The position numbers were made by a program, and so were the translations under genes. The notes beneath the pieces were generated by a model. It saw nothing but the letters and a program-made list of their open reading frames with translations. It made no database searches and was not told the DNA's origin. This document shows, piece by piece, positions 1,353 through 18,366 of a stretch of 27,060 nucleotides of DNA. How positions within the stretch are numbered: position 1 is the first letter of the stretch; every line of letters starts with the position of its first letter. Origin of the DNA: a virus (taxonomy: Duplodnaviria > Heunggongvirae > Uroviricota > Caudoviricetes). The stretch is from IMG/VR virus record IMGVR_UViG_2681813321_000031; one strand, written 5' to 3'.

Positions 1353-2348
1353 TTACCCAAGCACGCCGGTTGCAAAGGCGTGATCAAGAAAATGAAAAAT
1401 TAAATCAACCTGGGAACCATGCTTTTCTTCGAATGCCAGCGGATCCGCATGAAGCTCGTTGTGATGTTCCCGACACAGCGGTAGTGTGAAAATATCGTGG
1501 GATTTTGTTCCCATTCCACCCTGACCGTGGCCTATCAGGTGGTGGGCATCATCAGCAGGCTTTCCGCAACATGCGCACGGCTGCGTCTTAACCCAGCGCG
1601 TGTACTTTTCATTAACCCAGCGGCGACGTTTTGGGCGTAACATAAAAGACTCCGGCGACTCCGGATCCACTTTCAGCGCCAGCACCTTTTTCGCCTTATC
1701 CTGGATGATGCTGGTGGCAGTAACCGAAGGCACAAGGTCACTTTCCCGGGTAACAGACGGCACAACAGGCTTCGGTAATCTCAGTGCCTTACGGGCTGCA
1801 CTTTCCGATAAGGCATCCGCCAGATCATTACGAATCAGCCACCAGCACAGTTCCGGCATTGTCACAACGTGACTGTCGTCAAAACCGAGCTCCCGACGCA
1901 CAACAGACAACACCCAGCGGGCACAGTTATCCGTTGCCATTGATTCCAGCCGTTCCGTGAACTGATCGCGCAGCTGGTTATCGCAGTGCCAGCACAGACG
2001 GATCGCGCCCGGAGCGTGTCGCATTGTGGTCATGTTCTCGCTGTGCCAGTTGGAATGAGGCCACTGACAGCCCTTTTCACGAAGTAACCAGCTTTCAAGA
2101 CATTCCACGCCACCAGCACGACGGATCACTGCCTCATTGCGGAACACGGCCCGAACGGCAGGATCATCCGCCAGCGGTTGTGATGCCGCCGGAACGGCAC
2201 CACTGGCAAAAGATGAATAACGTTCCGGCTCAGGCTCCAGCAGGACACGCCCCTGCATAAACAGGGGCATCAGCTCTGAACCGGGCCTGAACAATACGAT
2301 CCCCATACGCGGGGCAATTTCAGGGGTCAGTAGTGCTCTCACGGTCAC
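1353..2348 (-). CDS. DUF968-like prophage protein with C-terminal HNH-type Cys/His motif
   Basis: 331-aa ORF; C-terminus CACCGKPADDAHHLIGHGQGG...LPLCREHHNELH is a CxxC...HH...C..HH HNH-like zinc-finger signature; resembles YdfU-type prophage proteins. The 5' part of the gene lies inside the 7.55-kb repeat unit. Confidence 0.75.
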   Translation of the reverse strand: MTVRALLTPEIAPRMGIVLFRPGSELMPLFMQGRVLLEPEPERYSSFASGAVPAASQPLADDPAVRAVFRNEAVIRRAGGVECLESWLLREKGCQWPHSNWHSENMTTMRHAPGAIRLCWHCDNQLRDQFTERLESMATDNCARWVLSVVRRELGFDDSHVVTMPELCWWLIRNDLADALSESAARKALRLPKPVVPSVTRESDLVPSVTATSIIQDKAKKVLALKVDPESPESFMLRPKRRRWVNEKYTRWVKTQPCACCGKPADDAHHLIGHGQGGMGTKSHDIFTLPLCREHHNELHADPLAFEEKHGSQVDLIFHFLDHAFATGVLG

Positions 2349-2393
2349 CTCAGCGAACGGTATTGCATGAACGCAGAAGAAAAAATTCAGCCA

Positions 2394-2651
2394 TCACGCA
2401 GTAAACTCCTTCACCAGTATTTCAAACTGGCTTACCTGGCCTTCCAGTTCCGCCACGCAATCCACCAGCTCATCCACCGCCTTTTGTGTGCGGTGTTTTG
2501 CCAGCAGCAGATCACGCAGCGCCGGAGTAAGCTGCTTGCGGAGCGTATCCTTTGCCACGCTCGTTTTTTCCATCTGTTCAGCACAACGAAGCATCTCCTG
2601 CGCCTGCCGACGAAGTTGTTCCGGTGAAACAGTGATTGCTCTGTTGTTCAA
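2394..2651 (-). CDS. hypothetical protein (85 aa, predicted helical)
   Basis: ORF overlaps the dnaB-like stop by 4 nt (translational coupling); no family recognised. Confidence 0.55.
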   Translation of the reverse strand: MNNRAITVSPEQLRRQAQEMLRCAEQMEKTSVAKDTLRKQLTPALRDLLLAKHRTQKAVDELVDCVAELEGQVSQFEILVKEFTA

Positions 2652-4048
2652 AATAAACGCTCCGTTTTACTGCCCGACATGCGGTTATTGCTGTATCTGC
2701 GCGGATTGCCCGGCGTCATGGGTGTGGAAAGAACCCGGGCACTCTCCTGGTCCACAGGCAGAAAATGTCCGTTATGAAAACGCCGGTAAATGGTCCCGAG
2801 CGTGCCATTACGCTGTTTCGTGATGTTGATTTCTGCTATGCCTCTGGCCTGAGTTTCCGGGTTGTATACCTCATCCCTGTAAAGCATCAGAATGATGTCG
2901 GCATCCGCCTCGATTTCCCCGGAGTTTTTCAGGTCCGAGTTCATTGGGCGTTTATTGGGTCTGGATTCCACGCCGCGGGAGAGCTGGCTCAGAGCAATCA
3001 GCGGAAAACCGCCGGATTTTGCCAGGCTTTTAAGTCCCTTTGAGATTTCCCCCACAGCAAGGTCGTGACGCCCCGTGCTGCGGGTTTTAATCAGGCCGAG
3101 GTAATCGACCACAACCAGCGCCGTTTCCGGGTGTTTCATCCGGTGGTGCTTCGTGGTTGCACATATCTCATCAATGGTCAGGTTTGCCTGGTCCACCATC
3201 CAGATATTACGCCCCGTCATTCGTCCCACGCCCTGCGAGAAACGCGCCCAGTCTTCATCTTCAAAACGGGCAACAGACTTAAGACGGGATACCGGCATTC
3301 CACCGGCAGCAGACACCATACGTTCACCAATCTGGATGTTCGCCATCTCCATGGTGAACAGAAGCACGCCATGCCCCTGCTCAGTCACCTTGTCGATGAT
3401 GTCCAGCGCAAGTTCGGTTTTCCCCATCGAAGGACGGGCGGCAATGAATACCAGGTCTCCGGGCTCCATACCGCCCGTTTTTGCGTCCAGTTCATCAATA
3501 CCGGTCATCAGCGCCCTGGATTTCTCCAGTCCCTGATTGCGGCATTCAACACGGTCGACCACTTCCGGAAGGACATCATCAATGTGAACCGGCTGAATGA
3601 CGCCCTTTCCGGTCGACAGTGAGGCCATCATGTTCTGCGCATCCTTCAGGGCATCCTCGGCTGCTTCACAGGTATACGCATCACGTAAATTCTGTAATGC
3701 TTCAGTCAGTGTTTTTTCTGCATCGCGCAGTGCGGCATTGCGCCGCAACGCTGCGACATAGTGCTCCAGTGAAGACTTCACCCAGGTTTTGCGTCCGGTG
3801 TCGGTAATCACCGGGGCAAGTTCCGGCATCTCATTGCACAGCAGTACGGGGTCAATGACGCCGAATATGCGAGCCTGTCTGCAAATCCCCGCGTAAATAT
3901 CCCGGTACTGACGCACAAAAAATACATCCGCCGGAAGTGTGGCCAGAATATCCATCACTTCCGGATCGGCCCCACGCAGAAAAAACGCACCGATGACAGC
4001 GCCTTCCAGGTCATCGTTACGCCATGCCGGGGTGTTCTGGCTGGTCAT
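2648..4048 (-). CDS. DnaB-family replicative DNA helicase
   Basis: 466 aa; Walker A GARPSMGKTELALDI, FTMEMANIQ and SQLSRGVESR regions match the DnaB RecA-like domain; 4-nt overlap with the upstream loader gene. Confidence 0.95.
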   Translation of the reverse strand: MTSQNTPAWRNDDLEGAVIGAFFLRGADPEVMDILATLPADVFFVRQYRDIYAGICRQARIFGVIDPVLLCNEMPELAPVITDTGRKTWVKSSLEHYVAALRRNAALRDAEKTLTEALQNLRDAYTCEAAEDALKDAQNMMASLSTGKGVIQPVHIDDVLPEVVDRVECRNQGLEKSRALMTGIDELDAKTGGMEPGDLVFIAARPSMGKTELALDIIDKVTEQGHGVLLFTMEMANIQIGERMVSAAGGMPVSRLKSVARFEDEDWARFSQGVGRMTGRNIWMVDQANLTIDEICATTKHHRMKHPETALVVVDYLGLIKTRSTGRHDLAVGEISKGLKSLAKSGGFPLIALSQLSRGVESRPNKRPMNSDLKNSGEIEADADIILMLYRDEVYNPETQARGIAEINITKQRNGTLGTIYRRFHNGHFLPVDQESARVLSTPMTPGNPRRYSNNRMSGSKTERLF

Positions 4049-4953
4049 GCGGCAACACCTCCGATACGAGAACGGTAGCTGGGCCAGTTAAACGACAACC
4101 AGTTGCGCCCGCCATCGGTGATCCTGTCGGCAATCCGGGGACTGATGAACGCCCACAATTCTTCCGGTGAAAGGTTGCTGATCAGGATAGTTGGCAAAAT
4201 ACCCTCATACCGGGCATTGATAATTTCCTGCAAAATGGCCATTTCAGCCGCACTGCCAAACTGAACGCCGACTTCGTCGACAATCAGCAAATCCAGTGAC
4301 GCATAATGCTCAATGACGTCATCCGCTGTTTTTTCACTGTCATTCCGCCAGCAGTTTTTCACAGCCCGGGTAAGGCGCATCACGTCGGTGATCTCCACAC
4401 TGGCCAGATAGTTACGGATGATGTGTTTTGCCATTGATACCGCCAGATGATTTTTCCCGGTACCGCAACTGCCGGTCATAACAAGACTGGTACCGTTCTC
4501 CAGCATATCTGGCCAGTTCTCCGCATAGCGGCGACAGGCCGCAAGATTTCTGGCTGCGTCAGGATTAACCTCCAGATAATTATCAAACTCGCAGTCCCGA
4601 AAACGCAGAGCAATTCCGGCGTTATCAGTCAGTTCTTCCGCCTTGAGGGACGACAGTTCCATGGTCAAATCACTGGCCTCAGCGATCAAGCAGTCAGGGC
4701 AGCATGAAATTTTTTCTCTGTCCTCGCCATTACGATCGATCCACACCAGTATATGCGTACGATATTTACCGTGTTTTTCGCAATATCCGCGACCTTCACG
4801 CATCAGGCAGGAACGATAAGGCCATGGCTTTTCGCCCTTCTGAGCAAATGCAATCTCTGCCCGTAACTCATCCATTTCTGCCCGTAACTCATCCATTCGC
4901 GCCTGTAGTCTTGTTTGTTTCTCACGTTGGTCAATCGTCATCATCGCTGTCAC
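4045..4953 (-). CDS. DnaC/IstB-like AAA+ helicase loader with N-terminal Cys-rich region
   Basis: 302 aa; Walker A GSCGTGKNHLA, Walker B LLIVDEVG; N-terminal Cys/His cluster (C...CEKHGK...CCPDC). Confidence 0.85.
   Translation of the reverse strand: MTAMMTIDQREKQTRLQARMDELRAEMDELRAEIAFAQKGEKPWPYRSCLMREGRGYCEKHGKYRTHILVWIDRNGEDREKISCCPDCLIAEASDLTMELSSLKAEELTDNAGIALRFRDCEFDNYLEVNPDAARNLAACRRYAENWPDMLENGTSLVMTGSCGTGKNHLAVSMAKHIIRNYLASVEITDVMRLTRAVKNCWRNDSEKTADDVIEHYASLDLLIVDEVGVQFGSAAEMAILQEIINARYEGILPTILISNLSPEELWAFISPRIADRITDGGRNWLSFNWPSYRSRIGGVAA
4858..4899. repeat. 21-bp in-frame tandem duplication inside the loader gene
   Basis: ctgcccgtaactcatccattt / ctgcccgtaactcatccattc; encodes MDELRAE-MDELRAE in the N-terminal coiled region. 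Confidence 0.8.
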
Positions 4954-4954
4954 C

Positions 4955-5947
4955 TCAGAATGTCAATTTGTTACTGGATTTACCGAATTTGTCCGACATG
5001 GCTCCCAGGCCAGCCAGGACATCGACCTGTCGCTGTCGCCCACCTCCGTGAGCGGCTGGCTGTTGCCAGTAATCTTCGAAGTGACGATCGGGTCCAAAGA
5101 ACGTCGCAGCCTGCTTCACGAACTGTGTGCCGATATTTCCTGTAGCACGTACCCAGGCGGCATACCGCTTCACGCCATCAAGCATGGTCTCCGGTTTTAT
5201 TCCCTCCCTGATACGGGCTTTCCAGGCTTTGAAGGCTGCTGACTTGGAATTGCCACCAGCACGTTTGGGATATTCCTGCCAGGCCTGTTCAAATTCCGGT
5301 GAATATTCCTGTCGGGCAGAACGCGCTGGCGCAGACGCGTCAGCGGATGCATCAATAGTGTTTTTAGTCTCCGTTGTAATCTCTGTAGTAATCTCTGTAT
5401 TTGTATCAACATTCGGCGTATCCCCTGTTCCGTTATGACGTCGGGGGGTGTTCCGTTTTAACGTAATAGCTGTATCGCTGATTGCATTATTGCTGTTACT
5501 TTCTGGCGAAACAGAAGAAGGTGTGGTGATGGCCGCAATTGCCTGTGGGTTGATCCCGACAAACAAAATATTGCTGCATTTCACCCCATCGAGCATTTCC
5601 ACCGTGCGTAAATCCAGAGTAATAAACCCTGCATCGCGCAGACGCTTCAGCGCATCTGCGGTTTCCCTTTTCCCGAAACCAAACTGCTCAGCAAACGCCT
5701 GGTAGCTTCTTTGCAGTTTGTCGCCCTGAAAACGCTTGCGATATCCCAGCAACGCTCCGGTGTGCTCATCCCTGACCTCTGTCGGGCGGTACCAGTAAAC
5801 GATCTCTGAAAGCAGAGCGATAGCCGTCGCATCCGGACGCCCACTGGGTAGTCGAATATATTTCCACCAGTTCGCAGGTGTAACATTGCCGGAAATATTA
5901 ATTTGACCAATAGCCATAACTTCCGGTGTGGGGGCGTAACGGCTCAT
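4955..5947 (-). CDS. putative replication initiator (O-like / replisome organizer)
   Basis: 330-aa ORF directly upstream of the loader and helicase genes; conserved N- and C-terminal blocks separated by a low-complexity T/E/I-rich linker. Assignment is by position plus weak motif resemblance. Confidence 0.55.
   Translation of the reverse strand: MSRYAPTPEVMAIGQINISGNVTPANWWKYIRLPSGRPDATAIALLSEIVYWYRPTEVRDEHTGALLGYRKRFQGDKLQRSYQAFAEQFGFGKRETADALKRLRDAGFITLDLRTVEMLDGVKCSNILFVGINPQAIAAITTPSSVSPESNSNNAISDTAITLKRNTPRRHNGTGDTPNVDTNTEITTEITTETKNTIDASADASAPARSARQEYSPEFEQAWQEYPKRAGGNSKSAAFKAWKARIREGIKPETMLDGVKRYAAWVRATGNIGTQFVKQAATFFGPDRHFEDYWQQPAAHGGGRQRQVDVLAGLGAMSDKFGKSSNKLTF
5375..5398. repeat. 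12-bp direct repeat (gtaatctctgta x2) in the initiator linker
   Basis: Encodes TEITTEITTE; candidate iteron-like repeats by analogy with lambda ori lying inside O. Confidence 0.4.
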
Positions 5948-6243
5948 ACAACCTCCTTCCGCGGCATGAGAATTGTGTAGCCACGCGCAGGTTGTAGTCT
6001 GGCTTTTGCATCAATAGTAAGCGTTGCAATTTTTCGGATATGAAGATAACCAGCTCTTTCCAGTGCCAGGGTTTCCCTGAATATCGCTTGCTTAGAACAA
6101 CAGCAGAAATCAGCAAGCACCTGATGATCAATAACTCTCTCGCCTTCACCGTCTGAAGAACCCGACATCAAAACACGCAACATAATCAGGCGCTGAATCG
6201 GGTTATCGAAAGCACATCCGCACACAAACTGAAAACAGTTCAC
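5944..6243 (-). CDS. hypothetical protein, possible winged-helix DNA-binding
   Basis: 99-aa ORF coupled to the initiator start by a 4-nt overlap. Confidence 0.45.
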   Translation of the reverse strand: MNCFQFVCGCAFDNPIQRLIMLRVLMSGSSDGEGERVIDHQVLADFCCCSKQAIFRETLALERAGYLHIRKIATLTIDAKARLQPARGYTILMPRKEVV

Positions 6244-6464
6244 GCCACACCTCCCAGACGCTTAAACATTTTTCCAGACAGAAATACCGCCAGAGGGTAA
6301 CTGATGGTGTAGCTACGCCCCTGTAGTTCGCACACGACTTTCTGGCTTTCAGCGTTGACTAGGCAAACCCGCAGAACGTGACCGTTGCTGGTGGCGAACC
6401 ACTGCCCCACACGGGGGCAACGGTTGTATCGGTGATACAGGGAATTAACGATGTGGCGGATCAT
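6240..6464 (-). CDS. hypothetical protein (74 aa)
   Basis: ORF in the operon, 4-nt overlap with the downstream gene. Confidence 0.4.
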   Translation of the reverse strand: MIRHIVNSLYHRYNRCPRVGQWFATSNGHVLRVCLVNAESQKVVCELQGRSYTISYPLAVFLSGKMFKRLGGVA

Positions 6465-6655
6465 GGACGCACCTCCACCGTAGTTACGTATTTAACCGGG
6501 CTACCTTTCATTGAGATGGTTTCACACATCTCTGCCGCTTTCAGTTCCGCTGTTTTTCTGGATTTATAGCGACGGTGCCAGACAGATACATCCGTGCGAA
6601 CTGATACATCGTTTCTGTATTCCGTAGTGGAGATGATGATTTCGTAACTAATCAT
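6461..6655 (-). CDS. hypothetical protein (64 aa)
   Basis: ORF in the operon, coupled to the neighbours. Confidence 0.4.
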   Translation of the reverse strand: MISYEIIISTTEYRNDVSVRTDVSVWHRRYKSRKTAELKAAEMCETISMKGSPVKYVTTVEVRP

Positions 6656-7203
6656 GGGCGAACCTCCTTGTCAGAACCATTCAGCCTGGAATCAACAAGT
6701 GCAGCGCCAAAAACAGCATCACCAACACGGTCGTACAGTTTGCTAGCCAGCGGAGATTCAACGGCCTTAAGCATTGGATAAAGCTGGCTTGTCCAGATTT
6801 GATGGATTTCACGCAAATGCAGGTATACGCCTCTGGCGTTTCGTGCGACAGCTGACATATCAACCGCGTCAGCACCAGATAAATTCTTCTCCATCTGGTT
6901 AAAGGCGTTGATGTATGCCTCTTTGAACCGGGCTGCACGTTTGCCAGTAAAGCCCATAGCAAGGAACGCGAAGCCATCGCGGGTGATTTGATAGCAAGGT
7001 AGTTTGCGGCCTGTGCAATCGGTGTAATCACTGGGCTGAAAATTCAGCTCAGTGAATTCAACAGAGCACTCAAGCGTCTGGATTTTTTGAATAACGTTTT
7101 TGTGCTGCTTGCAGAAATATTCGGCAACGGCCAAAGAAGAGGTAACAGCCTTCCCATGGATAACATCAATTTTAGGGTGAGTTTGGGTAGGGGTGGTTGC
7201 CAT
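6652..7203 (-). CDS. rha: phage regulatory protein Rha (core, 183 aa from ATG 7201-7203; track ORF extends to 7500)
   Basis: VTSSLAVAEYF...FTELNF...GRKLPCYQITRDGFAFLAMGFTGKRAARFKEAYINAFN matches the Rha N-terminal domain. ATG at 7201-7203 has a GAGGA Shine-Dalgarno 7 nt upstream. The longer 282-aa ORF reads through an upstream terminator hairpin and the structured element. Confidence 0.8.
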   Translation of the reverse strand: MATTPTQTHPKIDVIHGKAVTSSLAVAEYFCKQHKNVIQKIQTLECSVEFTELNFQPSDYTDCTGRKLPCYQITRDGFAFLAMGFTGKRAARFKEAYINAFNQMEKNLSGADAVDMSAVARNARGVYLHLREIHQIWTSQLYPMLKAVESPLASKLYDRVGDAVFGAALVDSRLNGSDKEVRP

Positions 7204-7260
7204 AGTGACATCCTCATGTGCGAATTTTGAAAACTCACCACATGGGACGCCAATCACAGA

Positions 7261-7339
7261 GGTGGTGAGACGTACAGGGTTGGCGTAACCGGTCGCACAT
7301 GACCCCGGCGCATCTTTCGATGCCCCTGCACGCCCCACC
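7261..7339 (-). ncRNA. candidate structured cis-regulatory RNA in the rha leader (P1 16-bp helix enclosing P2 and P3 hairpins)
   Basis: Minus-strand GGUGGGGCGUGCAGGG (7339-7324) pairs with CCCUGUACGUCUCACC (7279-7264): 13 Watson-Crick + 3 G-U pairs, which become A-C mismatches on the plus strand. P2 GCAUC-GAAA-GAUGC at 7323-7310. Copy 2 has the same P1 and a P2 of CCAAC-UUCG-GUUGG. Confidence 0.45.
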
Positions 7340-7366
7340 ATAATTTGGATGTGAGGAAACGTGCGC

Positions 7367-7389
7367 AAAAAAACCGCTGAAGCGCGGTT
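7367..7389 (-). terminator. intrinsic terminator-like hairpin + U7 between the rha-like gene and rha
   Basis: Minus-strand AACCGC-GCUUCA-GCGGUU followed by UUUUU; stem and U tract are conserved in copy 2 while the loop and flanks diverge. Confidence 0.45.
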
Positions 7390-7583
7390 ATGCGCATGTG
7401 CGAATTTCAGGACGCCAATCCCGGCACCCGCTTTATAAGGTGCGGAGACAGTGTAACGTCCCGAAATTGCAGAATCAATATTTGGTCTTGAAATGATCAT
7501 ATAGCTGCTGATATCTTTAGAACTGTTCTTGGATGTTTCGGAGCCGTTTTATGCGAAACAGCTCCCCGTTATTGATGTTGAGT

Positions 7584-7609
7584 GAGCCGGGTTACTCCCG
7601 GCTTTTTTT
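7584..7609 (+). terminator. plus-strand intrinsic terminator overlapping the stop codon of the 235-aa gene
   Basis: GAGCCGGG-UUACU-CCCGGCUU plus a 7-T tract on the plus strand only (no U tract on the minus strand); implies a plus-strand transcript convergent with the operon. Confidence 0.45.
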
Positions 7610-8316
7610 CACCGCTGCCAACCAATAACCTGAAATAACCCCATTTTCGGGTGATACCAGCGAGTCCCTCGCGGTTCTGCTTCCTCCATAACCCGATAAA
7701 AAGCAGCCATAAACGGTTCCACAGCAACAATTGCGCGACGTGACAACAATCCGTCCGGCGTCATGAACTCATGGGTGTCTGTAGGAATTTGATAGGCGTT
7801 CACCAGATTGCGGCATTTATCATCTGACAAACCGGTTTTTGCTTTCAGTTGGCGATATCCGGCATAGCCCTCACGAATAGTGCCCTTTTTAATTTGCTCG
7901 ACTGTTTCAGCAACGTGGCTGACTTTTTCTTCCACCTGAGTGATCCGTTTCTGTTGGCGAACGGCTTCAAGAGCCATCGCGGCAACCATTTCGATTTCGC
8001 TCATTGGCTTACGGATCTGTTCTTCCAGTTCGCGCCAGCGATCTACCAGGCGAGCAGTGAATTCAGGACAGAGCTGTGCGACGACAATGATGCTGTCGCG
8101 CTTACCTCGTTCACCTTCGAATACATACGCGCTAGAAAATCGGCGAGGCCCAAGTGATTGTTTATTCTCAATTTCCACAGTCTGTGGAAATTGGATGATT
8201 CCCTTTTTAGCCAGTGTTTCAATAGTTCTCTTAACACTATCTGGTCGGCTTCCCACCAGCTCTGCGATCTCAACGCTGGTCATGGATGCTTTGCCGTTAA
8301 AAATTGCGGTGTTCAT
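7609..8316 (-). CDS. Rha/antirepressor-like phage regulatory protein (235 aa) at the cII position
   Basis: N-terminal TSVEIAELVGSRPDSVKRTIETL resembles the Rha-type N-terminal DNA-binding motif; ATGA overlap with the upstream Cro-like gene. Confidence 0.55.
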   Translation of the reverse strand: MNTAIFNGKASMTSVEIAELVGSRPDSVKRTIETLAKKGIIQFPQTVEIENKQSLGPRRFSSAYVFEGERGKRDSIIVVAQLCPEFTARLVDRWRELEEQIRKPMSEIEMVAAMALEAVRQQKRITQVEEKVSHVAETVEQIKKGTIREGYAGYRQLKAKTGLSDDKCRNLVNAYQIPTDTHEFMTPDGLLSRRAIVAVEPFMAAFYRVMEEAEPRGTRWYHPKMGLFQVIGWQR

Positions 8317-8540
8317 TGTTGGTCTCCTGTGGGCTTGTCATCTTCTGTATTCGCTAGACTTGGGTGTGTATATGGAATGCTCGGATCCAGATGACAAAGA
8401 ATGGCAACATCCTCCGGAACACCTCGCGTTTTCCACTTTCCAACACCTTGACTGCCACGAGGCCTTCCTTTCTTTGGGAACCTGCGACCAATAGCGGCAT
8501 TGGTTTTAAATTGAATTTTTAATATTTCATAAAGGGTCAT
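8313..8540 (-). CDS. Cro/DicC-like small DNA-binding protein (75 aa)
   Basis: First gene divergent from cI across an operator-rich intergenic region; small and basic; ...FKTNAAIGRRF... resembles the Cro/DicC HTH region. Largely positional inference. Confidence 0.5.
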   Translation of the reverse strand: MTLYEILKIQFKTNAAIGRRFPKKGRPRGSQGVGKWKTRGVPEDVAILCHLDPSIPYTHPSLANTEDDKPTGDQQ

Positions 8541-8651
8541 TCTTTAGTCTCACACCAGATACTTTGTTATTCAACGATGTTAACCACAGGAATCCAAAGT
8601 ATCAAGAAATTCTGTTACTTTAGTATCAACAGCCATGAGAGGAGAAGAAAA
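8541..8651. promoter_or_regulatory. OR-like operator/promoter region between the cro-like gene and cI
   Basis: Three copies of the core AGTATCA / GATACT (8558-8564 inverted; 8598-8604 and 8622-8628 direct) in 110 bp; AGAGGAGAA Shine-Dalgarno before the cI ATG. Confidence 0.5.
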
Positions 8652-9308
8652 ATGAAGTCTTTAGGTGAACGTCTCATCAACGCACGGCAAAAAGCTGGGT
8701 TAACACAAGATGCGTTGGCTAAAAAAGCTGGGATCACCAGAGTTGCAATCAGTAAAGCCGAGCAAGGCCTTACAAAAAGTTTCAACGGTGACACCCTTTT
8801 TAAAGTTGCAGCTGCACTGCGGTGTTCACCGCAGTGGCTTCAGAACGGAGATGAAAAAGATAAGCATTGGGAAAATAATGTTAAGAGCTGCCCACAGAGA
8901 GACACAGCACACTCTTACCCTGTAATTAACTGGGTTCAGGCAGGATTATTCGCAACTTCTGGTGATGACTACAACATGTATGATCAGGATAATTGGAGGC
9001 ATTCTGTAAAATACGCTGGTGAGAGGGGGTTCTGGCTGGAAGTGCACGGAGACTCAATGACTTCGCCCGTAGGAATAACATTTCCTGAAGGAATGTCGAT
9101 CCTTGTCAACCCAGATAAAGAAGTTTTTTCAGGGTGTTACGTCATCGCCAGAAAAAAATCTACCAATGAAGCAACATTCAAAAAATATATTTCTGACATG
9201 GGAAAGGCGTTTCTAAAGCCCCTTAATCCACAATATCCAATCATAGAAATGGACAATGATTGCGAAATAGTAGGTGTTGTGGTTGATGCCAGGTGGGATA
9301 TTTTCTGA
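8652..9308 (+). CDS. CI-like prophage repressor (XRE HTH + S24 LexA-like peptidase domain)
   Basis: MKSLGERLINARQKAGLTQDALAKKAGITRVAISKAEQG is an HTH; C-terminal ...LEVHGDSMTSP...CYVIARKK... shows the S24 Ser/Lys dyad pattern; strong RBS. Track ORF starts 75 nt earlier at an alternative codon. Confidence 0.9.
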   Translation: MKSLGERLINARQKAGLTQDALAKKAGITRVAISKAEQGLTKSFNGDTLFKVAAALRCSPQWLQNGDEKDKHWENNVKSCPQRDTAHSYPVINWVQAGLFATSGDDYNMYDQDNWRHSVKYAGERGFWLEVHGDSMTSPVGITFPEGMSILVNPDKEVFSGCYVIARKKSTNEATFKKYISDMGKAFLKPLNPQYPIIEMDNDCEIVGVVVDARWDIF

Positions 9309-9411
9309 CCAGACACAAAACACAAAAAGAAACCAAAGTATCAAAAATCACTTGCCACACCTTGATACCTTAGTTACCATAAAACAAAGTTCGTAACTGA
9401 GGTATCATCCC
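9309..9411. promoter_or_regulatory. OL-like operator/promoter region downstream of cI
   Basis: The same GTATCA core recurs three times (9337-9343, 9363-9369 inverted, 9401-9407), forming an inverted pair AAGTATCAA...TTGATACCT. Confidence 0.4.
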
Positions 9412-9771: not shown

Positions 9772-9944
9772 CGTTCCGGCTCAGGCTCCAGCAGGACACG
9801 CCCCTGCATAAACAGGGGCATCAGCTCTGAACCGGGCCTGAACAATACGATCCCCATACGCGGGGCAATTTCAGGGGTCAGTAGTGCTCTCACGGTCACC
9901 TCAGCGAACGGTATTGCATGAACGCAGAAGAAAAAATTCAGCCA

Positions 9945-10202
9945 TCACGCAGTAAACTCCTTCACCAGTATTTCAAACTGGCTTACCTGGCCTTCCAGTT
10001 CCGCCACGCAATCCACCAGCTCATCCACCGCCTTTTGTGTGCGGTGTTTTGCCAGCAGCAGATCACGCAGCGCCGGAGTAAGCTGCTTGCGGAGCGTATC
10101 CTTTGCCACGCTCGTTTTTTCCATCTGTTCAGCACAACGAAGCATCTCCTGCGCCTGCCGACGAAGTTGTTCCGGTGAAACAGTGATTGCTCTGTTGTTC
10201 AA
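9945..10202 (-). CDS. hypothetical protein (85 aa), copy B
   Basis: Identical to 2394..2651. Confidence 0.55.
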   Translation of the reverse strand: MNNRAITVSPEQLRRQAQEMLRCAEQMEKTSVAKDTLRKQLTPALRDLLLAKHRTQKAVDELVDCVAELEGQVSQFEILVKEFTA

Positions 10203-11599
10203 AATAAACGCTCCGTTTTACTGCCCGACATGCGGTTATTGCTGTATCTGCGCGGATTGCCCGGCGTCATGGGTGTGGAAAGAACCCGGGCACTCTCCTG
10301 GTCCACAGGCAGAAAATGTCCGTTATGAAAACGCCGGTAAATGGTCCCGAGCGTGCCATTACGCTGTTTCGTGATGTTGATTTCTGCTATGCCTCTGGCC
10401 TGAGTTTCCGGGTTGTATACCTCATCCCTGTAAAGCATCAGAATGATGTCGGCATCCGCCTCGATTTCCCCGGAGTTTTTCAGGTCCGAGTTCATTGGGC
10501 GTTTATTGGGTCTGGATTCCACGCCGCGGGAGAGCTGGCTCAGAGCAATCAGCGGAAAACCGCCGGATTTTGCCAGGCTTTTAAGTCCCTTTGAGATTTC
10601 CCCCACAGCAAGGTCGTGACGCCCCGTGCTGCGGGTTTTAATCAGGCCGAGGTAATCGACCACAACCAGCGCCGTTTCCGGGTGTTTCATCCGGTGGTGC
10701 TTCGTGGTTGCACATATCTCATCAATGGTCAGGTTTGCCTGGTCCACCATCCAGATATTACGCCCCGTCATTCGTCCCACGCCCTGCGAGAAACGCGCCC
10801 AGTCTTCATCTTCAAAACGGGCAACAGACTTAAGACGGGATACCGGCATTCCACCGGCAGCAGACACCATACGTTCACCAATCTGGATGTTCGCCATCTC
10901 CATGGTGAACAGAAGCACGCCATGCCCCTGCTCAGTCACCTTGTCGATGATGTCCAGCGCAAGTTCGGTTTTCCCCATCGAAGGACGGGCGGCAATGAAT
11001 ACCAGGTCTCCGGGCTCCATACCGCCCGTTTTTGCGTCCAGTTCATCAATACCGGTCATCAGCGCCCTGGATTTCTCCAGTCCCTGATTGCGGCATTCAA
11101 CACGGTCGACCACTTCCGGAAGGACATCATCAATGTGAACCGGCTGAATGACGCCCTTTCCGGTCGACAGTGAGGCCATCATGTTCTGCGCATCCTTCAG
11201 GGCATCCTCGGCTGCTTCACAGGTATACGCATCACGTAAATTCTGTAATGCTTCAGTCAGTGTTTTTTCTGCATCGCGCAGTGCGGCATTGCGCCGCAAC
11301 GCTGCGACATAGTGCTCCAGTGAAGACTTCACCCAGGTTTTGCGTCCGGTGTCGGTAATCACCGGGGCAAGTTCCGGCATCTCATTGCACAGCAGTACGG
11401 GGTCAATGACGCCGAATATGCGAGCCTGTCTGCAAATCCCCGCGTAAATATCCCGGTACTGACGCACAAAAAATACATCCGCCGGAAGTGTGGCCAGAAT
11501 ATCCATCACTTCCGGATCGGCCCCACGCAGAAAAAACGCACCGATGACAGCGCCTTCCAGGTCATCGTTACGCCATGCCGGGGTGTTCTGGCTGGTCAT
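10199..11599 (-). CDS. DnaB-family replicative helicase, copy B
   Basis: Identical protein to 2648..4048. Confidence 0.95.
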   Translation of the reverse strand: MTSQNTPAWRNDDLEGAVIGAFFLRGADPEVMDILATLPADVFFVRQYRDIYAGICRQARIFGVIDPVLLCNEMPELAPVITDTGRKTWVKSSLEHYVAALRRNAALRDAEKTLTEALQNLRDAYTCEAAEDALKDAQNMMASLSTGKGVIQPVHIDDVLPEVVDRVECRNQGLEKSRALMTGIDELDAKTGGMEPGDLVFIAARPSMGKTELALDIIDKVTEQGHGVLLFTMEMANIQIGERMVSAAGGMPVSRLKSVARFEDEDWARFSQGVGRMTGRNIWMVDQANLTIDEICATTKHHRMKHPETALVVVDYLGLIKTRSTGRHDLAVGEISKGLKSLAKSGGFPLIALSQLSRGVESRPNKRPMNSDLKNSGEIEADADIILMLYRDEVYNPETQARGIAEINITKQRNGTLGTIYRRFHNGHFLPVDQESARVLSTPMTPGNPRRYSNNRMSGSKTERLF

Positions 11600-12504
11600 G
11601 CGGCAACACCTCCGATACGAGAACGGTAGCTGGGCCAGTTAAACGACAACCAGTTGCGCCCGCCATCGGTGATCCTGTCGGCAATCCGGGGACTGATGAA
11701 CGCCCACAATTCTTCCGGTGAAAGGTTGCTGATCAGGATAGTTGGCAAAATACCCTCATACCGGGCATTGATAATTTCCTGCAAAATGGCCATTTCAGCC
11801 GCACTGCCAAACTGAACGCCGACTTCGTCGACAATCAGCAAATCCAGTGACGCATAATGCTCAATGACGTCATCCGCTGTTTTTTCACTGTCATTCCGCC
11901 AGCAGTTTTTCACAGCCCGGGTAAGGCGCATCACGTCGGTGATCTCCACACTGGCCAGATAGTTACGGATGATGTGTTTTGCCATTGATACCGCCAGATG
12001 ATTTTTCCCGGTACCGCAACTGCCGGTCATAACAAGACTGGTACCGTTCTCCAGCATATCTGGCCAGTTCTCCGCATAGCGGCGACAGGCCGCAAGATTT
12101 CTGGCTGCGTCAGGATTAACCTCCAGATAATTATCAAACTCGCAGTCCCGAAAACGCAGAGCAATTCCGGCGTTATCAGTCAGTTCTTCCGCCTTGAGGG
12201 ACGACAGTTCCATGGTCAAATCACTGGCCTCAGCGATCAAGCAGTCAGGGCAGCATGAAATTTTTTCTCTGTCCTCGCCATTACGATCGATCCACACCAG
12301 TATATGCGTACGATATTTACCGTGTTTTTCGCAATATCCGCGACCTTCACGCATCAGGCAGGAACGATAAGGCCATGGCTTTTCGCCCTTCTGAGCAAAT
12401 GCAATCTCTGCCCGTAACTCATCCATTTCTGCCCGTAACTCATCCATTCGCGCCTGTAGTCTTGTTTGTTTCTCACGTTGGTCAATCGTCATCATCGCTG
12501 TCAC
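11596..12504 (-). CDS. DnaC/IstB-like helicase loader, copy B
   Basis: Identical protein to 4045..4953. Confidence 0.85.
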   Translation of the reverse strand: MTAMMTIDQREKQTRLQARMDELRAEMDELRAEIAFAQKGEKPWPYRSCLMREGRGYCEKHGKYRTHILVWIDRNGEDREKISCCPDCLIAEASDLTMELSSLKAEELTDNAGIALRFRDCEFDNYLEVNPDAARNLAACRRYAENWPDMLENGTSLVMTGSCGTGKNHLAVSMAKHIIRNYLASVEITDVMRLTRAVKNCWRNDSEKTADDVIEHYASLDLLIVDEVGVQFGSAAEMAILQEIINARYEGILPTILISNLSPEELWAFISPRIADRITDGGRNWLSFNWPSYRSRIGGVAA

Positions 12505-12505
12505 C

Positions 12506-13498
12506 TCAGAATGTCAATTTGTTACTGGATTTACCGAATTTGTCCGACATGGCTCCCAGGCCAGCCAGGACATCGACCTGTCGCTGTCGCCCACCTCCGT
12601 GAGCGGCTGGCTGTTGCCAGTAATCTTCGAAGTGACGATCGGGTCCAAAGAACGTCGCAGCCTGCTTCACGAACTGTGTGCCGATATTTCCTGTAGCACG
12701 TACCCAGGCGGCATACCGCTTCACGCCATCAAGCATGGTCTCCGGTTTTATTCCCTCCCTGATACGGGCTTTCCAGGCTTTGAAGGCTGCTGACTTGGAA
12801 TTGCCACCAGCACGTTTGGGATATTCCTGCCAGGCCTGTTCAAATTCCGGTGAATATTCCTGTCGGGCAGAACGCGCTGGCGCAGACGCGTCAGCGGATG
12901 CATCAATAGTGTTTTTAGTCTCCGTTGTAATCTCTGTAGTAATCTCTGTATTTGTATCAACATTCGGCGTATCCCCTGTTCCGTTATGACGTCGGGGGGT
13001 GTTCCGTTTTAACGTAATAGCTGTATCGCTGATTGCATTATTGCTGTTACTTTCTGGCGAAACAGAAGAAGGTGTGGTGATGGCCGCAATTGCCTGTGGG
13101 TTGATCCCGACAAACAAAATATTGCTGCATTTCACCCCATCGAGCATTTCCACCGTGCGTAAATCCAGAGTAATAAACCCTGCATCGCGCAGACGCTTCA
13201 GCGCATCTGCGGTTTCCCTTTTCCCGAAACCAAACTGCTCAGCAAACGCCTGGTAGCTTCTTTGCAGTTTGTCGCCCTGAAAACGCTTGCGATATCCCAG
13301 CAACGCTCCGGTGTGCTCATCCCTGACCTCTGTCGGGCGGTACCAGTAAACGATCTCTGAAAGCAGAGCGATAGCCGTCGCATCCGGACGCCCACTGGGT
13401 AGTCGAATATATTTCCACCAGTTCGCAGGTGTAACATTGCCGGAAATATTAATTTGACCAATAGCCATAACTTCCGGTGTGGGGGCGTAACGGCTCAT
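12506..13498 (-). CDS. putative replication initiator (O-like), copy B
   Basis: Identical protein to 4955..5947. Confidence 0.55.
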   Translation of the reverse strand: MSRYAPTPEVMAIGQINISGNVTPANWWKYIRLPSGRPDATAIALLSEIVYWYRPTEVRDEHTGALLGYRKRFQGDKLQRSYQAFAEQFGFGKRETADALKRLRDAGFITLDLRTVEMLDGVKCSNILFVGINPQAIAAITTPSSVSPESNSNNAISDTAITLKRNTPRRHNGTGDTPNVDTNTEITTEITTETKNTIDASADASAPARSARQEYSPEFEQAWQEYPKRAGGNSKSAAFKAWKARIREGIKPETMLDGVKRYAAWVRATGNIGTQFVKQAATFFGPDRHFEDYWQQPAAHGGGRQRQVDVLAGLGAMSDKFGKSSNKLTF

Positions 13499-13794
13499 AC
13501 AACCTCCTTCCGCGGCATGAGAATTGTGTAGCCACGCGCAGGTTGTAGTCTGGCTTTTGCATCAATAGTAAGCGTTGCAATTTTTCGGATATGAAGATAA
13601 CCAGCTCTTTCCAGTGCCAGGGTTTCCCTGAATATCGCTTGCTTAGAACAACAGCAGAAATCAGCAAGCACCTGATGATCAATAACTCTCTCGCCTTCAC
13701 CGTCTGAAGAACCCGACATCAAAACACGCAACATAATCAGGCGCTGAATCGGGTTATCGAAAGCACATCCGCACACAAACTGAAAACAGTTCAC
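13495..13794 (-). CDS. hypothetical protein, copy B
   Basis: Identical to 5944..6243. Confidence 0.45.
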   Translation of the reverse strand: MNCFQFVCGCAFDNPIQRLIMLRVLMSGSSDGEGERVIDHQVLADFCCCSKQAIFRETLALERAGYLHIRKIATLTIDAKARLQPARGYTILMPRKEVV

Positions 13795-14015
13795 GCCACA
13801 CCTCCCAGACGCTTAAACATTTTTCCAGACAGAAATACCGCCAGAGGGTAACTGATGGTGTAGCTACGCCCCTGTAGTTCGCACACGACTTTCTGGCTTT
13901 CAGCGTTGACTAGGCAAACCCGCAGAACGTGACCGTTGCTGGTGGCGAACCACTGCCCCACACGGGGGCAACGGTTGTATCGGTGATACAGGGAATTAAC
14001 GATGTGGCGGATCAT
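13791..14015 (-). CDS. hypothetical protein, copy B
   Basis: Identical to 6240..6464. Confidence 0.4.
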   Translation of the reverse strand: MIRHIVNSLYHRYNRCPRVGQWFATSNGHVLRVCLVNAESQKVVCELQGRSYTISYPLAVFLSGKMFKRLGGVA

Positions 14016-14206
14016 GGACGCACCTCCACCGTAGTTACGTATTTAACCGGGCTACCTTTCATTGAGATGGTTTCACACATCTCTGCCGCTTTCAGTTCCG
14101 CTGTTTTTCTGGATTTATAGCGACGGTGCCAGACAGATACATCCGTGCGAACTGATACATCGTTTCTGTATTCCGTAGTGGAGATGATGATTTCGTAACT
14201 AATCAT
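14012..14206 (-). CDS. hypothetical protein, copy B
   Basis: Identical to 6461..6655. Confidence 0.4.
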   Translation of the reverse strand: MISYEIIISTTEYRNDVSVRTDVSVWHRRYKSRKTAELKAAEMCETISMKGSPVKYVTTVEVRP

Positions 14207-14754
14207 GGGCGAACCTCCTTGTCAGAACCATTCAGCCTGGAATCAACAAGTGCAGCGCCAAAAACAGCATCACCAACACGGTCGTACAGTTTGCTAGCCA
14301 GCGGAGATTCAACGGCCTTAAGCATTGGATAAAGCTGGCTTGTCCAGATTTGATGGATTTCACGCAAATGCAGGTATACGCCTCTGGCGTTTCGTGCGAC
14401 AGCTGACATATCAGACGTATCGGCACCTGATAAACTCTTCTCCATCAGGTTAAAGGCGTTGATGTATGCCTCTTTGAACCGGGCAGCACGTTTACCAGTG
14501 AAGCCCATGGCAAGGAACGCGAAGCCATCGCGGGTGATTTGATAGCAAGGTAGTTTGCGGCCTGATGCGTCGGTGTATTCACTTAACACAAAATTGTGTT
14601 CAGTAAATTCAGCGGAACATTCGAGGTTTCTAATTCTATCTAAAACCCGCTCATGCCGTTTAGTAAAGTAATTAGCTACTGCAAGAGATGTGGTGACAAC
14701 GCGACCATTGATAATCGTGATTTCAGGGTGAGATTGGGTTGGGAGAGTAGTCAT
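14203..14754 (-). CDS. rha: phage regulatory protein Rha, divergent allele (core from ATG 14752-14754; track ORF extends to 15057)
   Basis: C-terminal half identical to copy A; the N-terminal Rha domain carries many substitutions (e.g. KQHKNVIQKIQTL vs KRHERVLDRIRNL). Confidence 0.8.
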   Translation of the reverse strand: MTTLPTQSHPEITIINGRVVTTSLAVANYFTKRHERVLDRIRNLECSAEFTEHNFVLSEYTDASGRKLPCYQITRDGFAFLAMGFTGKRAARFKEAYINAFNLMEKSLSGADTSDMSAVARNARGVYLHLREIHQIWTSQLYPMLKAVESPLASKLYDRVGDAVFGAALVDSRLNGSDKEVRP

Positions 14755-14814
14755 GGTGACAGCCCCTATGTTGAATTCAATGAACTCACCACCAAGGCTT
14801 TCCACGACCATATA

Positions 14815-14893
14815 GGTGGTGAGACGTACAGGGGTGGAAATACCGGTCAACATAGAACCCGGCCCAACCGAAGTTGGCCCTGCACGCCCCACC
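14815..14893 (-). ncRNA. candidate structured RNA element, copy B (covarying with 7261..7339)
   Basis: P1 strands identical to copy A; P2 is CCAAC-UUCG-GUUGG (plus strand 14864-14877); P3 retains the CCGG...CCGG pairing with a diverged loop. Confidence 0.45.
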
Positions 14894-14924
14894 ATAATTT
14901 GGGCGTAACGATGCTCATGACACG

Positions 14925-14946
14925 AAAAAACCGCATGAGCGCGGTT
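14925..14946 (-). terminator. intrinsic terminator-like hairpin + U tract, copy B
   Basis: Minus-strand AACCGC-GCUCAU-GCGGUU followed by UUUU; same stem as copy A, different loop. Confidence 0.4.
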
Positions 14947-15140
14947 GTGCTCTATATTGAATTTCGGGTTTCCACGCCCGGCACCCGCTTTATAAGGTGC
15001 CTGAGCAGTGTAACGTCCCGGAATTGCAGAATCAATATTTGGTCTTGAAATGATCATATAGCTGCTGATATCTTTAGAACTGTTCTTGGATGTTTCGGAG
15101 CCGTTTTATGCGAAACAGCTCCCCGTTATTGATGTTGAGT

Positions 15141-15166
15141 GAGCCGGGTTACTCCCGGCTTTTTTT
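15141..15166 (+). terminator. plus-strand intrinsic terminator, copy B
   Basis: Identical to 7584..7609. Confidence 0.45.
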
Positions 15167-15873
15167 CACCGCTGCCAACCAATAACCTGAAATAACCCCA
15201 TTTTCGGGTGATACCAGCGAGTCCCTCGCGGTTCTGCTTCCTCCATAACCCGATAAAAAGCAGCCATAAACGGTTCCACAGCAACAATTGCGCGACGTGA
15301 CAACAATCCGTCCGGCGTCATGAACTCATGGGTGTCTGTAGGAATTTGATAGGCGTTCACCAGATTGCGGCATTTATCATCTGACAAACCGGTTTTTGCT
15401 TTCAGTTGGCGATATCCGGCATAGCCCTCACGAATAGTGCCCTTTTTAATTTGCTCGACTGTTTCAGCAACGTGGCTGACTTTTTCTTCCACCTGAGTGA
15501 TCCGTTTCTGTTGGCGAACGGCTTCAAGAGCCATCGCGGCAACCATTTCGATTTCGCTCATTGGCTTACGGATCTGTTCTTCCAGTTCGCGCCAGCGATC
15601 TACCAGGCGAGCAGTGAATTCAGGACAGAGCTGTGCGACGACAATGATGCTGTCGCGCTTACCTCGTTCACCTTCGAATACATACGCGCTAGAAAATCGG
15701 CGAGGCCCAAGTGATTGTTTATTCTCAATTTCCACAGTCTGTGGAAATTGGATGATTCCCTTTTTAGCCAGTGTTTCAATAGTTCTCTTAACACTATCTG
15801 GTCGGCTTCCCACCAGCTCTGCGATCTCAACGCTGGTCATGGATGCTTTGCCGTTAAAAATTGCGGTGTTCAT
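15166..15873 (-). CDS. Rha/antirepressor-like regulatory protein (235 aa), copy B
   Basis: Identical to 7609..8316. Confidence 0.55.
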   Translation of the reverse strand: MNTAIFNGKASMTSVEIAELVGSRPDSVKRTIETLAKKGIIQFPQTVEIENKQSLGPRRFSSAYVFEGERGKRDSIIVVAQLCPEFTARLVDRWRELEEQIRKPMSEIEMVAAMALEAVRQQKRITQVEEKVSHVAETVEQIKKGTIREGYAGYRQLKAKTGLSDDKCRNLVNAYQIPTDTHEFMTPDGLLSRRAIVAVEPFMAAFYRVMEEAEPRGTRWYHPKMGLFQVIGWQR

Positions 15874-16097
15874 TGTTGGTCTCCTGTGGGCTTGTCATCT
15901 TCTGTATTCGCTAGACTTGGGTGTGTATATGGAATGCTCGGATCCAGATGACAAAGAATGGCAACATCCTCCGGAACACCTCGCGTTTTCCACTTTCCAA
16001 CACCTTGACTGCCACGAGGCCTTCCTTTCTTTGGGAACCTGCGACCAATAGCGGCATTGGTTTTAAATTGAATTTTTAATATTTCATAAAGGGTCAT
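15870..16097 (-). CDS. Cro/DicC-like protein, copy B
   Basis: Identical to 8313..8540. Confidence 0.5.
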   Translation of the reverse strand: MTLYEILKIQFKTNAAIGRRFPKKGRPRGSQGVGKWKTRGVPEDVAILCHLDPSIPYTHPSLANTEDDKPTGDQQ

Positions 16098-16208
16098 TCT
16101 TTAGTCTCACACCAGATACTTTGTTATTCAACGATGTTAACCACAGGAATCCAAAGTATCAAGAAATTCTGTTACTTTAGTATCAACAGCCATGAGAGGA
16201 GAAGAAAA
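16098..16208. promoter_or_regulatory. OR-like operator region, copy B
   Basis: Identical to 8541..8651. Confidence 0.5.
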
Positions 16209-16865
16209 ATGAAGTCTTTAGGTGAACGTCTCATCAACGCACGGCAAAAAGCTGGGTTAACACAAGATGCGTTGGCTAAAAAAGCTGGGATCACCAGAGT
16301 TGCAATCAGTAAAGCCGAGCAAGGCCTTACAAAAAGTTTCAACGGTGACACCCTTTTTAAAGTTGCAGCTGCACTGCGGTGTTCACCGCAGTGGCTTCAG
16401 AACGGAGATGAAAAAGATAAGCATTGGGAAAATAATGTTAAGAGCTGCCCACAGAGAGACACAGCACACTCTTACCCTGTAATTAACTGGGTTCAGGCAG
16501 GATTATTCGCAACTTCTGGTGATGACTACAACATGTATGATCAGGATAATTGGAGGCATTCTGTAAAATACGCTGGTGAGAGGGGGTTCTGGCTGGAAGT
16601 GCACGGAGACTCAATGACTTCGCCCGTAGGAATAACATTTCCTGAAGGAATGTCGATCCTTGTCAACCCAGATAAAGAAGTTTTTTCAGGGTGTTACGTC
16701 ATCGCCAGAAAAAAATCTACCAATGAAGCAACATTCAAAAAATATATTTCTGACATGGGAAAGGCGTTTCTAAAGCCCCTTAATCCACAATATCCAATCA
16801 TAGAAATGGACAATGATTGCGAAATAGTAGGTGTTGTGGTTGATGCCAGGTGGGATATTTTCTGA
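16209..16865 (+). CDS. CI-like repressor, copy B
   Basis: Identical to 8652..9308. Confidence 0.9.
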   Translation: MKSLGERLINARQKAGLTQDALAKKAGITRVAISKAEQGLTKSFNGDTLFKVAAALRCSPQWLQNGDEKDKHWENNVKSCPQRDTAHSYPVINWVQAGLFATSGDDYNMYDQDNWRHSVKYAGERGFWLEVHGDSMTSPVGITFPEGMSILVNPDKEVFSGCYVIARKKSTNEATFKKYISDMGKAFLKPLNPQYPIIEMDNDCEIVGVVVDARWDIF

Positions 16866-16968
16866 CCAGACACAAAACACAAAAAGAAACCAAAGTATCA
16901 AAAATCACTTGCCACACCTTGATACCTTAGTTACCATAAAACAAAGTTCGTAACTGAGGTATCATCCC
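16866..16968. promoter_or_regulatory. OL-like operator region, copy B
   Basis: Identical to 9309..9411. Confidence 0.4.
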
Positions 16969-17472
16969 ATGATCAATAAAGCTACAACTCTTGACTGTCT
17001 CGAAGAACTGAAAAACCTCGGCAGCCTCATTACACTAATAGCAAAAGCAACACCTGATGCTACGCTCTCTAGCGATATAGAGTCATGCGCAGGACTGGCA
17101 TGGGATATGACAAATAGCATATCCAGAAAGCTATCGTCAGCAATGCTTTTACAGAACAAAAATTCTGCAATCAACAACCGTCTTCGCACCCAACGCGAAG
17201 CCTGCGGCTTAACAACCGCCGAACTCGCCAGGCTGCTCGATCTCGATGAAGAAATTATCATCCAGTGGGAGAGCGGAGAGTATGAACCAACTATCAGTAT
17301 GCTTATCCCACTGGCAAATATTCTTGGCTGCGATCCGATGTGCCTGTTAACTGGTGAGGTTACTCCTCCGGAGCAACCAAAAAGTGAGGAGCAGCAACAC
17401 CATGACGCATCTCAACAAGTTTGCCCCTTATCTCGCGAAGCTCTTCTGCGGAAGAACCAATACCAATGGTGA
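16969..17472 (+). CDS. XRE-family HTH protein at the N position (167 aa; HTH in the central region)
   Basis: ...NNRLRTQREACGLTTAELARLLDLDEEIIIQWESGEYEPTISMLIPLANILGCDPMCLLTG is a typical XRE HTH_3 domain; the 58-aa N-terminal extension is uncharacterised (alternative start at ATG 17143). Confidence 0.65.
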   Translation: MINKATTLDCLEELKNLGSLITLIAKATPDATLSSDIESCAGLAWDMTNSISRKLSSAMLLQNKNSAINNRLRTQREACGLTTAELARLLDLDEEIIIQWESGEYEPTISMLIPLANILGCDPMCLLTGEVTPPEQPKSEEQQHHDASQQVCPLSREALLRKNQYQW

Positions 17473-18361: not shown

Positions 18362-18366
18362 ATATC

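Follow-up and report, generated by a model that had tools for sequence, protein, structure and literature searches.

Does a phage sequence that carries its immunity and replication genes twice, head to tail, describe a prophage with a duplicated module, or an assembly in which one module was placed twice? The question was raised by IMG/VR virus record IMGVR_UViG_2681813321_000031 (Caudoviricetes), which was analysed here as a single stretch of 27,060 nucleotides (nt), referred to as the window. A sequence-only reading had described a 7.55-kb tandem repeat in the window, extending from the 5′ part of a DUF968 gene through the replication genes, the repressor and a helix-turn-helix (HTH) gene, with an 11-bp joint at 9751-9761. 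It had added the caveat that two related prophages might have been mis-scaffolded. The head-to-tail repeat, the joint and the gene content of the unit, the last by Pfam and the gene list, were all recovered in the present analysis. The caveat nevertheless proved to be the better-supported reading, based on gaps in the source scaffold, a second loop, a joint private to one record and an allele swap between the copies. With a probability of roughly 0.55, the repeat is an assembly artefact in which two prophage variants of one region were threaded in series, and on present evidence it is not to be regarded as a biological feature.

Self-BLAST of the window matched 2200-9761 to 9751-17318 as a head-to-tail direct repeat of 7,579 columns at 98.03% identity, and a repeat search gave spacings of 7551, 7554 and 7557. 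The 11-mer CCACTGGCAAA was present at three positions: 2200-2210 within the DUF968 gene, 9751-9761 at the joint and 17308-17318 within the intact HTH gene. This placement of a short direct repeat, with one occurrence at each outer boundary and one at the joint, is what a microhomology duplication is expected to leave. The joint has HTH-gene sequence on its left and DUF968-gene sequence on its right. No N gap is present there, and the 11-nt overlap slightly exceeds a 10-nt threshold for gap closing. The chimeric open reading frame (ORF) that had been claimed at the joint was present as an HTH remnant on one strand and a second ORF on the other.

2200-9761: copy A of the unit (self-comparison, Pfam, gene list)
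9751-17318: copy B of the unit, with the same gene set as copy A
9412-9771, plus strand: chimeric truncated HTH ORF of 119 amino acids (aa), residues 1-116 of the intact 167-aa protein followed by K-D-E-stop (protein ids CTT95445.1 / WP_053899642.1)
9405-9899, minus strand: 164-aa ORF, the first ~49 codons being the DUF968 N-terminus and the remainder antisense to the HTH gene

The 164-aa ORF matched no Pfam family and was absent from the record's gene list.

Comparison of the two copies revealed that they were byte-identical over 4,663 nt and a further 2,297 nt (6,960 nt in total). All 170 differing columns, comprising 164 substitutions and 6 indel columns, were confined to one patch per copy:

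6863-7464, minus strand: allele A patch, containing isrK, a C4 antisense RNA, targets a2 and b2 and the Rha N-terminal part
14414-15021, minus strand: allele B patch, containing isrK, a C4 antisense RNA with its own targets and the Rha N-terminal part

Copies A and B were then placed in a four-way alignment with the single-copy mlrA prophages of strains 12A and CE10. The copy A patch was identical to CE10 at 170/170 columns, and the copy B patch was identical to 12A, also at 170/170. Beyond the patch, both copies were of the 12A type at all of the 41 or more sites that distinguish 12A from CE10. A further single-copy mlrA prophage, that of GCA_900449225.1 (L027), carried allele A with an identical patch. 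Both alleles are found in single-copy prophages, in the same context and at 99.9-100% identity. One single-nucleotide polymorphism (SNP), at 4994/12545, was common to both copies and was lacking in 12A, CE10 and L027; since it is synonymous, there is no protein unique to this isolate. From these alignments, the copies appear to be one backbone carrying two natural alleles of one cassette. A microhomology duplication would leave copies that are identical or that differ only by later point mutations, whereas these copies differ by a natural allele swap. Variant-specific sequence within identical flanks is instead the pattern of a false duplication. Since the patch versions are pre-existing natural alleles, mutation after duplication is excluded, including that produced by a diversity-generating retroelement (DGR).

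The source of the window was identified as positions 154-27213 of CYBF01000044.1 (45,267 nt), belonging to the Escherichia coli draft GCA_001285025.1. The 044 suffix suggests that this is one of at least 44 contigs. A draft, scaffolded origin is also characteristic of false duplications, and the window contains runs of N. These runs and a second repeat had escaped the sequence-only reading, as had the patch of differences.

22551-22571: run of 21 N separating phage DNA (left) from the mid-part of the group II intron gene ltrA (right)
25419-25439: recurrence of the run of 21 N, with the same flanks
21333-24192 and 24201-27060: second repeat, with a period of 2,868 nt and 100% identity, reaching the window end
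22583-23623: ltrA 3′ part, encoding the RVT_1 and GIIM domains of a truncated group II intron maturase
23627-23713: group II intron domains (Intron_gpII RNA), directly downstream of ltrA

The 2,868-nt unit consists, in order, of phage sequence 21333-22550, the run of 21 N, the ltrA 3′ part, the intron domains and the 3′ part of IS911. The terminal inverted repeat of IS911 ends exactly at 24200, and the phage sequence of 21333 restarts at 24201; the IS911 copy in the window is split by the group II intron. All relatives checked (13/13) continued unchanged for at least 96 nt past 22550, and so the window sequence is broken at 22551. To the right of the gap, the sequence starts at a homopolymer (gaaaccc followed by GGGG) that is variable among ltrA copies of other genomes. 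Simple masking of continuous sequence was rejected as an explanation of the N runs, the flanks being from unrelated loci and the relatives continuing differently; it is possible that the run is a masked adaptor at a chimeric join. A second loop at 100% identity across N gaps means that this scaffold places the same sequence more than once, and the 2,868-nt repeat is almost certainly a scaffolding loop.

Searches for the 9751-9761 joint in independent assemblies gave a consistent result. When a query that spans the joint was run against 5,426 complete E. coli genomes and 50,697 phage records, no hit crossed it, and all hits in both sets ended at 9751-9761. A 40-mer across the joint was found in none of the genome, viral and metagenome contig collections, and the chimeric HTH protein was present in exactly one contig among ~15 billion proteins. 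Absence of the joint from independent assemblies is a further mark of a false duplication. The left flank, 1-2199, was collinear with strain 12A, and 9751-22550 corresponded to one uninterrupted piece of that strain at 99.9%.

The right end of IS911 abuts phage position 21333 (24177-24201) within a 182-aa gene neighbouring Ead/Ea22. The same junction was present in L027 (L027 11538-13242) with 1 mismatch in 1,705 nt, IS911 there replacing phage 19142-21332, and it was found in none of the 5,426 complete E. coli genomes. The junction is natural but rare. The occurrence of allele A and of this junction together in L027 points to an L027-like second variant in the sample. In addition, position 21333 has two different left contexts in the window, and therefore at least two copies of 21333-22550 were present in the sample.

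Based on these data, the following course of events is proposed. The sample would have held two versions of the same lambdoid-prophage early region, either as two co-resident prophages of one family or as a mixed population. The A-allele version would match CE10 and GCA_900449225.1, and the B-allele version strain 12A. To a short-read assembler, the two would be indistinguishable save for a cassette of ~0.6-1.1 kb encoding isrK, the C4 antisense RNA and the Rha antirepressor. If the assembler failed to merge the cassettes, the shared backbone would be walked twice, once per cassette, and the return link could have closed on the 11-nt overlap, barely over the 10-nt minimum overlap required by gap closers such as GapFiller (PMC3446322). 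The same looping further along the scaffold would have left the 21-N gaps unclosed. Scaffold-plus-gap-fill pipelines are known to admit false joins, at 4-10 misassemblies per genome (PMC5320598), and the copies in false heterotype duplications are typically neighbours, with gaps or wrongly filled gaps between them (PMC9516828). We infer both the identity of the assembler and how the link was made; a Velvet/SSPACE/GapFiller pipeline is a guess. No literature on the record accessions was found.

Natural breakpoints in the prophage family were compared with the ends of the repeat and of the gap. The family occupies both mlrA and yecE with near-identical early regions, and the excisionase/integrase arms of the mlrA and yecE types diverge ~122-123 nt beyond 22550 (L001 versus L024-L026, L029 and L037). 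The gap edge at 22550 fits a de Bruijn scaffold with k of ~97-123; the same k was looked for at the 9751-9761 joint and was not confirmed. The immunity region has sharp natural mosaic boundaries at 17182, in the HTH gene, and at 8320/8321. Between them, L027- and L015-type prophages have a different cro, repressor and HTH 5′ part, and outside them they are identical. Neither end of the 7.55-kb unit could be assigned to such a boundary. At 2200, the common boundary instead lies at ~2363, and DUF968 paralogue SNPs at 2202 and 2208 fall inside the 11-mer; at 17318, the known boundary is that at 17182, which precedes the joint by 126-137 nt. Partial proteins of 108-121 aa in other drafts may be explained by the 17182 boundary combined with a k-mer of ~127, rather than by a boundary at 17318, although this is suggestive only.

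Several of these observations count against an artefact. Neither 2200 nor, convincingly, 17318 is a natural boundary that would explain a contig end. The two breakpoints share an 11-mer, which is improbable by luck: ~0.002 matches would be expected within ±50 nt and ~0.02 within ±150 nt. A chance 11-mer at both breakpoints being improbable, the joint was made by a homology-seeking process, and cellular microhomology-mediated recombination is one such process. An 11-nt joint can be made by the cell or by software. If the joined molecule was absent, no source can be named for read pairs linking the HTH gene to DUF968. Finally, the assembler and read type are undocumented for the draft record.

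If the joint was instead made in the cell, the 7,551-nt immunity/replication module could truly be duplicated in tandem on the chromosome, through RecA-independent recombination or template switching at CCACTGGCAAA. The lysogen would then have the repressor gene, the operator region and the origin with its replication genes in duplicate, and possibly C4 RNAs of two specificities. This was judged unlikely, while ranking next after an artefact. The three positions of the 11-mer, at the two ends of the repeat and at the joint, are its textbook footprint. CCACTGGCAAA is natural both in the HTH gene and in this DUF968 allele, and its length lies within the 5-25 nt range of microhomology for RecA-independent joining in bacteria (bioRxiv 10.64898/2026.05.22.727201). 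Substrates are plentiful, with 33 pairs of identical 11-mers located 3-12 kb apart in a 15-kb single-copy version, the private SNP in both copies fits a recent event, and neither breakpoint lies at a natural mosaic boundary. The identity of the copies and the A/B order carry no weight in this respect, since telling apart two 4.7-kb copies with 100% identity is beyond the reach of a short-read assembly. Opposed to a genuine duplication are the privacy of the joint to one draft record and the loop across N gaps in the same scaffold. Perfect direct repeats of 7 kb are unstable in a RecA+ host. The cassette also needs an extra event or mis-threading: allele A may have come from patch recombination with another resident prophage, or may have been mis-threaded from a second prophage. 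A true heteroallelic duplication, with two full immunity/replication modules differing only in C4/Rha cassette specificity, was considered less probable still; it would have arisen from an 11-nt event between sibling phages, or else a duplication would have come first and an exchange of cassettes second. The earlier claim of two cI genes and two operator sets holds at the level of the sequence, while a real duplication is not established, given the gapped draft and the allele swap.

A real joint could also belong to a different structure, which was thought improbable. Two tandem or neighbouring related prophages may have been fused by a deletion, joining the HTH gene of the left one to the DUF968 gene of the right one. 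Unequal exchange between prophages at the mlrA and yecE attachment sites may have duplicated a large chromosomal segment, or a 7,551-nt lambda-dv-like circle may have coexisted with the prophage as a by-product. In the assembly graph of a short-read data set, these three structures would all appear as the same loop. The occupation of both mlrA and yecE by prophages with near-identical early regions is consistent with such structures, as are the presence of at least two copies of 21333-22550 in the sample, the two natural alleles, which fit two parental phages, and the initiator, helicase loader and helicase within the unit. A deletion, however, would have removed the right arm of the left prophage, yet its typical IS911/phage junction persists, and with 7 kb of perfect homology available, RecA exchange should outcompete an 11-nt event. 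With its repressor gene intact, as the repressor ORF is here, a dv-like plasmid would be expected to repress its own replication; the circle was kept as a minor rival. A tandem polylysogen was rejected, the joint lying between the HTH gene and DUF968 with no integrase, attachment site or late genes between the copies. The patch was also considered as the product of targeted hypermutation by a DGR after duplication, in view of the reverse-transcriptase ORF nearby at 22583-23623 and the confinement of the differences to ~600 nt. This was refuted by the substitution spectrum and the natural alleles, leaving it a negligible chance: all twelve substitution types were seen with no adenine bias, indels were present and the versions matched CE10 and 12A at every one of the 170 sites. 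The reverse transcriptase itself is the truncated group II intron maturase (RVT_1 and GIIM, with Intron_gpII downstream).

The components of the two patches were then assigned, the C4 antisense RNAs both exceeding the score threshold of 45 bits for RF01695.

7367-7443, minus strand: isrK, allele A (Rfam)
7258-7345, minus strand: C4 antisense RNA, allele A (Rfam RF01695, 75.1 bits)
7253-7247 and 7223-7214, minus strand: C4 targets a2 and b2, respectively, allele A
14924-15000, minus strand: isrK, allele B (Rfam)
14812-14899, minus strand: C4 antisense RNA, allele B (Rfam RF01695, 82.4 bits)
14805-14799 and 14774-14766, minus strand: C4 targets, allele B

The outer stem of the C4 RNA was the same in A and B, and the internal hairpin, loop and single-stranded segment differed. 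Each allele has two target pairs to which its own loop and single-stranded segment are complementary, each target being of 7-10 nt. The first pair (a1/b1) lies inside isrK, and the second (a2/b2) is followed directly by a ribosome-binding site and an internal AUG. For allele A, the ‘a’ target is UUGGCGU and the ‘b’ target UCGCACAUG(A); for allele B, they are GUGGAAA and UCAACAUAG, respectively. No cross-complementarity between the C4 RNA of one allele and the targets of the other was found. By these features, the patch is predicted to be a C4 immunity module of the P1/P7 immI type. In P1 and P7, it is the c4 specificity of immI that defines heteroimmunity. By sequence comparison, variation in this widespread prophage backbone of E. 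coli is limited to the cassette, whose versions would be discrete, non-cross-reacting specificity alleles.

The two Rha ORFs were 75% identical overall, with identical C-terminal thirds. Immediately past target b2 there is a conserved internal AUG (~7203 / ~14754), at which an N-terminus typical of Rha proteins begins. In the annotated ORF of 282/284 aa, the Pfam ‘Ash’ domain falls on the isrK and C4 RNA genes (7170-7500 and 14720-15057, minus strand); rather than protein, it may be an RNA-coding stretch that annotation has translated. Two cassettes can also be found in a single prophage. In L024 (GCA_020907605.1), positions 5199-6709 contain two tandem isrK-C4-rha cassettes located 0.66 kb apart, one with the C4 loop of allele B and the other with a loop sequence of a third kind. 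The two Ash+Rha genes of L024 are also found in L029, which is probably another two-cassette prophage.

The remaining genes of the left flank and of the two units were mapped as follows.

1-2199, minus strand: left flank, single copy, comprising a small ORF, the DUF1133/Q-like gene, RusA and the 3′ five-sixths of the DUF968 gene (Pfam, gene list)
430-984, minus strand: DUF1133/Q-like gene (Pfam)
981-1340, minus strand: RusA (Pfam)
1353-2342, minus strand: DUF968 gene (Pfam), its 5′ part inside the repeated unit
2394-2651: 85-aa ORF, copy A
2648-4048: DnaB-type helicase, copy A (Pfam)
4045-4944: IstB/DnaC-like ATPase, copy A (Pfam)
4955-5947: 330-aa replication initiator, copy A
Between the initiator and the isrK/C4/Rha cassette: three small ORFs, copy A
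Within the isrK/C4/Rha cassette, allele A: Ash+Rha ORF, copy A
7609-8316: 235-aa Rha-family gene, copy A
8313-8540: 75-aa cro-position gene, copy A
8652-9308, plus strand: LexA/S24-type repressor, copy A
10199-11599: helicase, copy B
12506-13498: initiator, copy B
14203-15057: cassette, allele B
16209-16865: repressor, copy B
16969-17472: intact 167-aa HTH gene

The interval between the repressor and the cro-position gene, 8541-8651, contains GATACTTTG...CAAAGTATC and repeated CTTTAGT(C/A)TCA motifs; these are candidate operator half-sites and occur in both copies. Further to the right, a 12-nt in-frame insertion at 18325-18336 lengthens a small gene to 66 aa, compared to 62 aa in 12A and CE10. 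The insertion is also present in L027, and in that stretch the window is nearer to L027 than to 12A. A 59-nt direct repeat of 85% identity (19753-19811 and 20438-20496) lies in or beside adjacent ead/Ea22-like ORFs and probably reflects paralogous gene segments.

How the locus is read has consequences for its use. If the repeat is an artefact, the gene counts of the record are inflated, since the repressor and the helicase are each counted twice and a 119-aa ‘regulator’ with a RefSeq accession (WP_053899642.1) is spurious, and studies of prophage immunity dosage or gene duplication that use draft assemblies would be misled. If it is real, it would represent a rare natural lysogen with a duplicated immunity/replication module and two antirepressor-control specificities, and its phage should be too long to package until recombined to a single copy. 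A true heteroallelic duplication would allow the lysogen to silence antirepressors of two specificity classes and would double the repressor dosage. In either case, the P1/P7-like C4 cassette with its discrete specificity alleles is a by-product worth keeping.

Of the known systems, the false heterotype duplications described by Ko et al. (2022, PMC9516828) share with the window the adjacent allelic versions, the identical flanks, the allele-specific sequence in each copy and the gaps or wrong fills at or near the joins. They were described in diploid vertebrates, whereas here the versions would be prophage variants or a mixed culture of a haploid bacterium, and the joint in the window has no gap. 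The L024 prophage resembles the window in that one prophage contains two cassettes with different C4 recognition sequences. It differs in that these are ~0.66 kb apart in one early region of a contiguous 5.26-Mb contig, with no repeated 7.55-kb module.

RecA-independent tandem duplications at short homologies are known in E. coli and Salmonella, as in the ampC and lac amplification junctions. They correspond to the window in the head-to-tail copies and in the 11-nt direct repeat at both ends and the joint, but the copies here differ by a natural allele swap, which is not the product of a fresh duplication. Lambda-dv plasmids retain an immunity-plus-replication segment. The unit is similar both to these and to lambda tandem-duplication mutants in spanning the repressor, the cro-position gene, the initiator, the loader and the helicase. 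Unlike a dv-type replicon, it has an intact repressor gene, which would not be expected there, and in place of lambda O and P it has a DnaB-type helicase and an IstB/DnaC-like loader. The closest parallels to the cassette are P1/P7 immI (c4, icd, ant) and Gifsy-1 isrK-anrP, which have the same order of a1-b1 in isrK, C4 RNA, a2-b2, ribosome-binding site and antirepressor ORF. As in P1 and P7, alleles A and B have recognition sequences that are predicted to be mutually exclusive. In contrast to P1/P7 and Gifsy-1, the cassette of the window is part of a lambdoid prophage and lies between the replication genes and the gene in the cro position, and the protein that it is predicted to control belongs to the Rha family.

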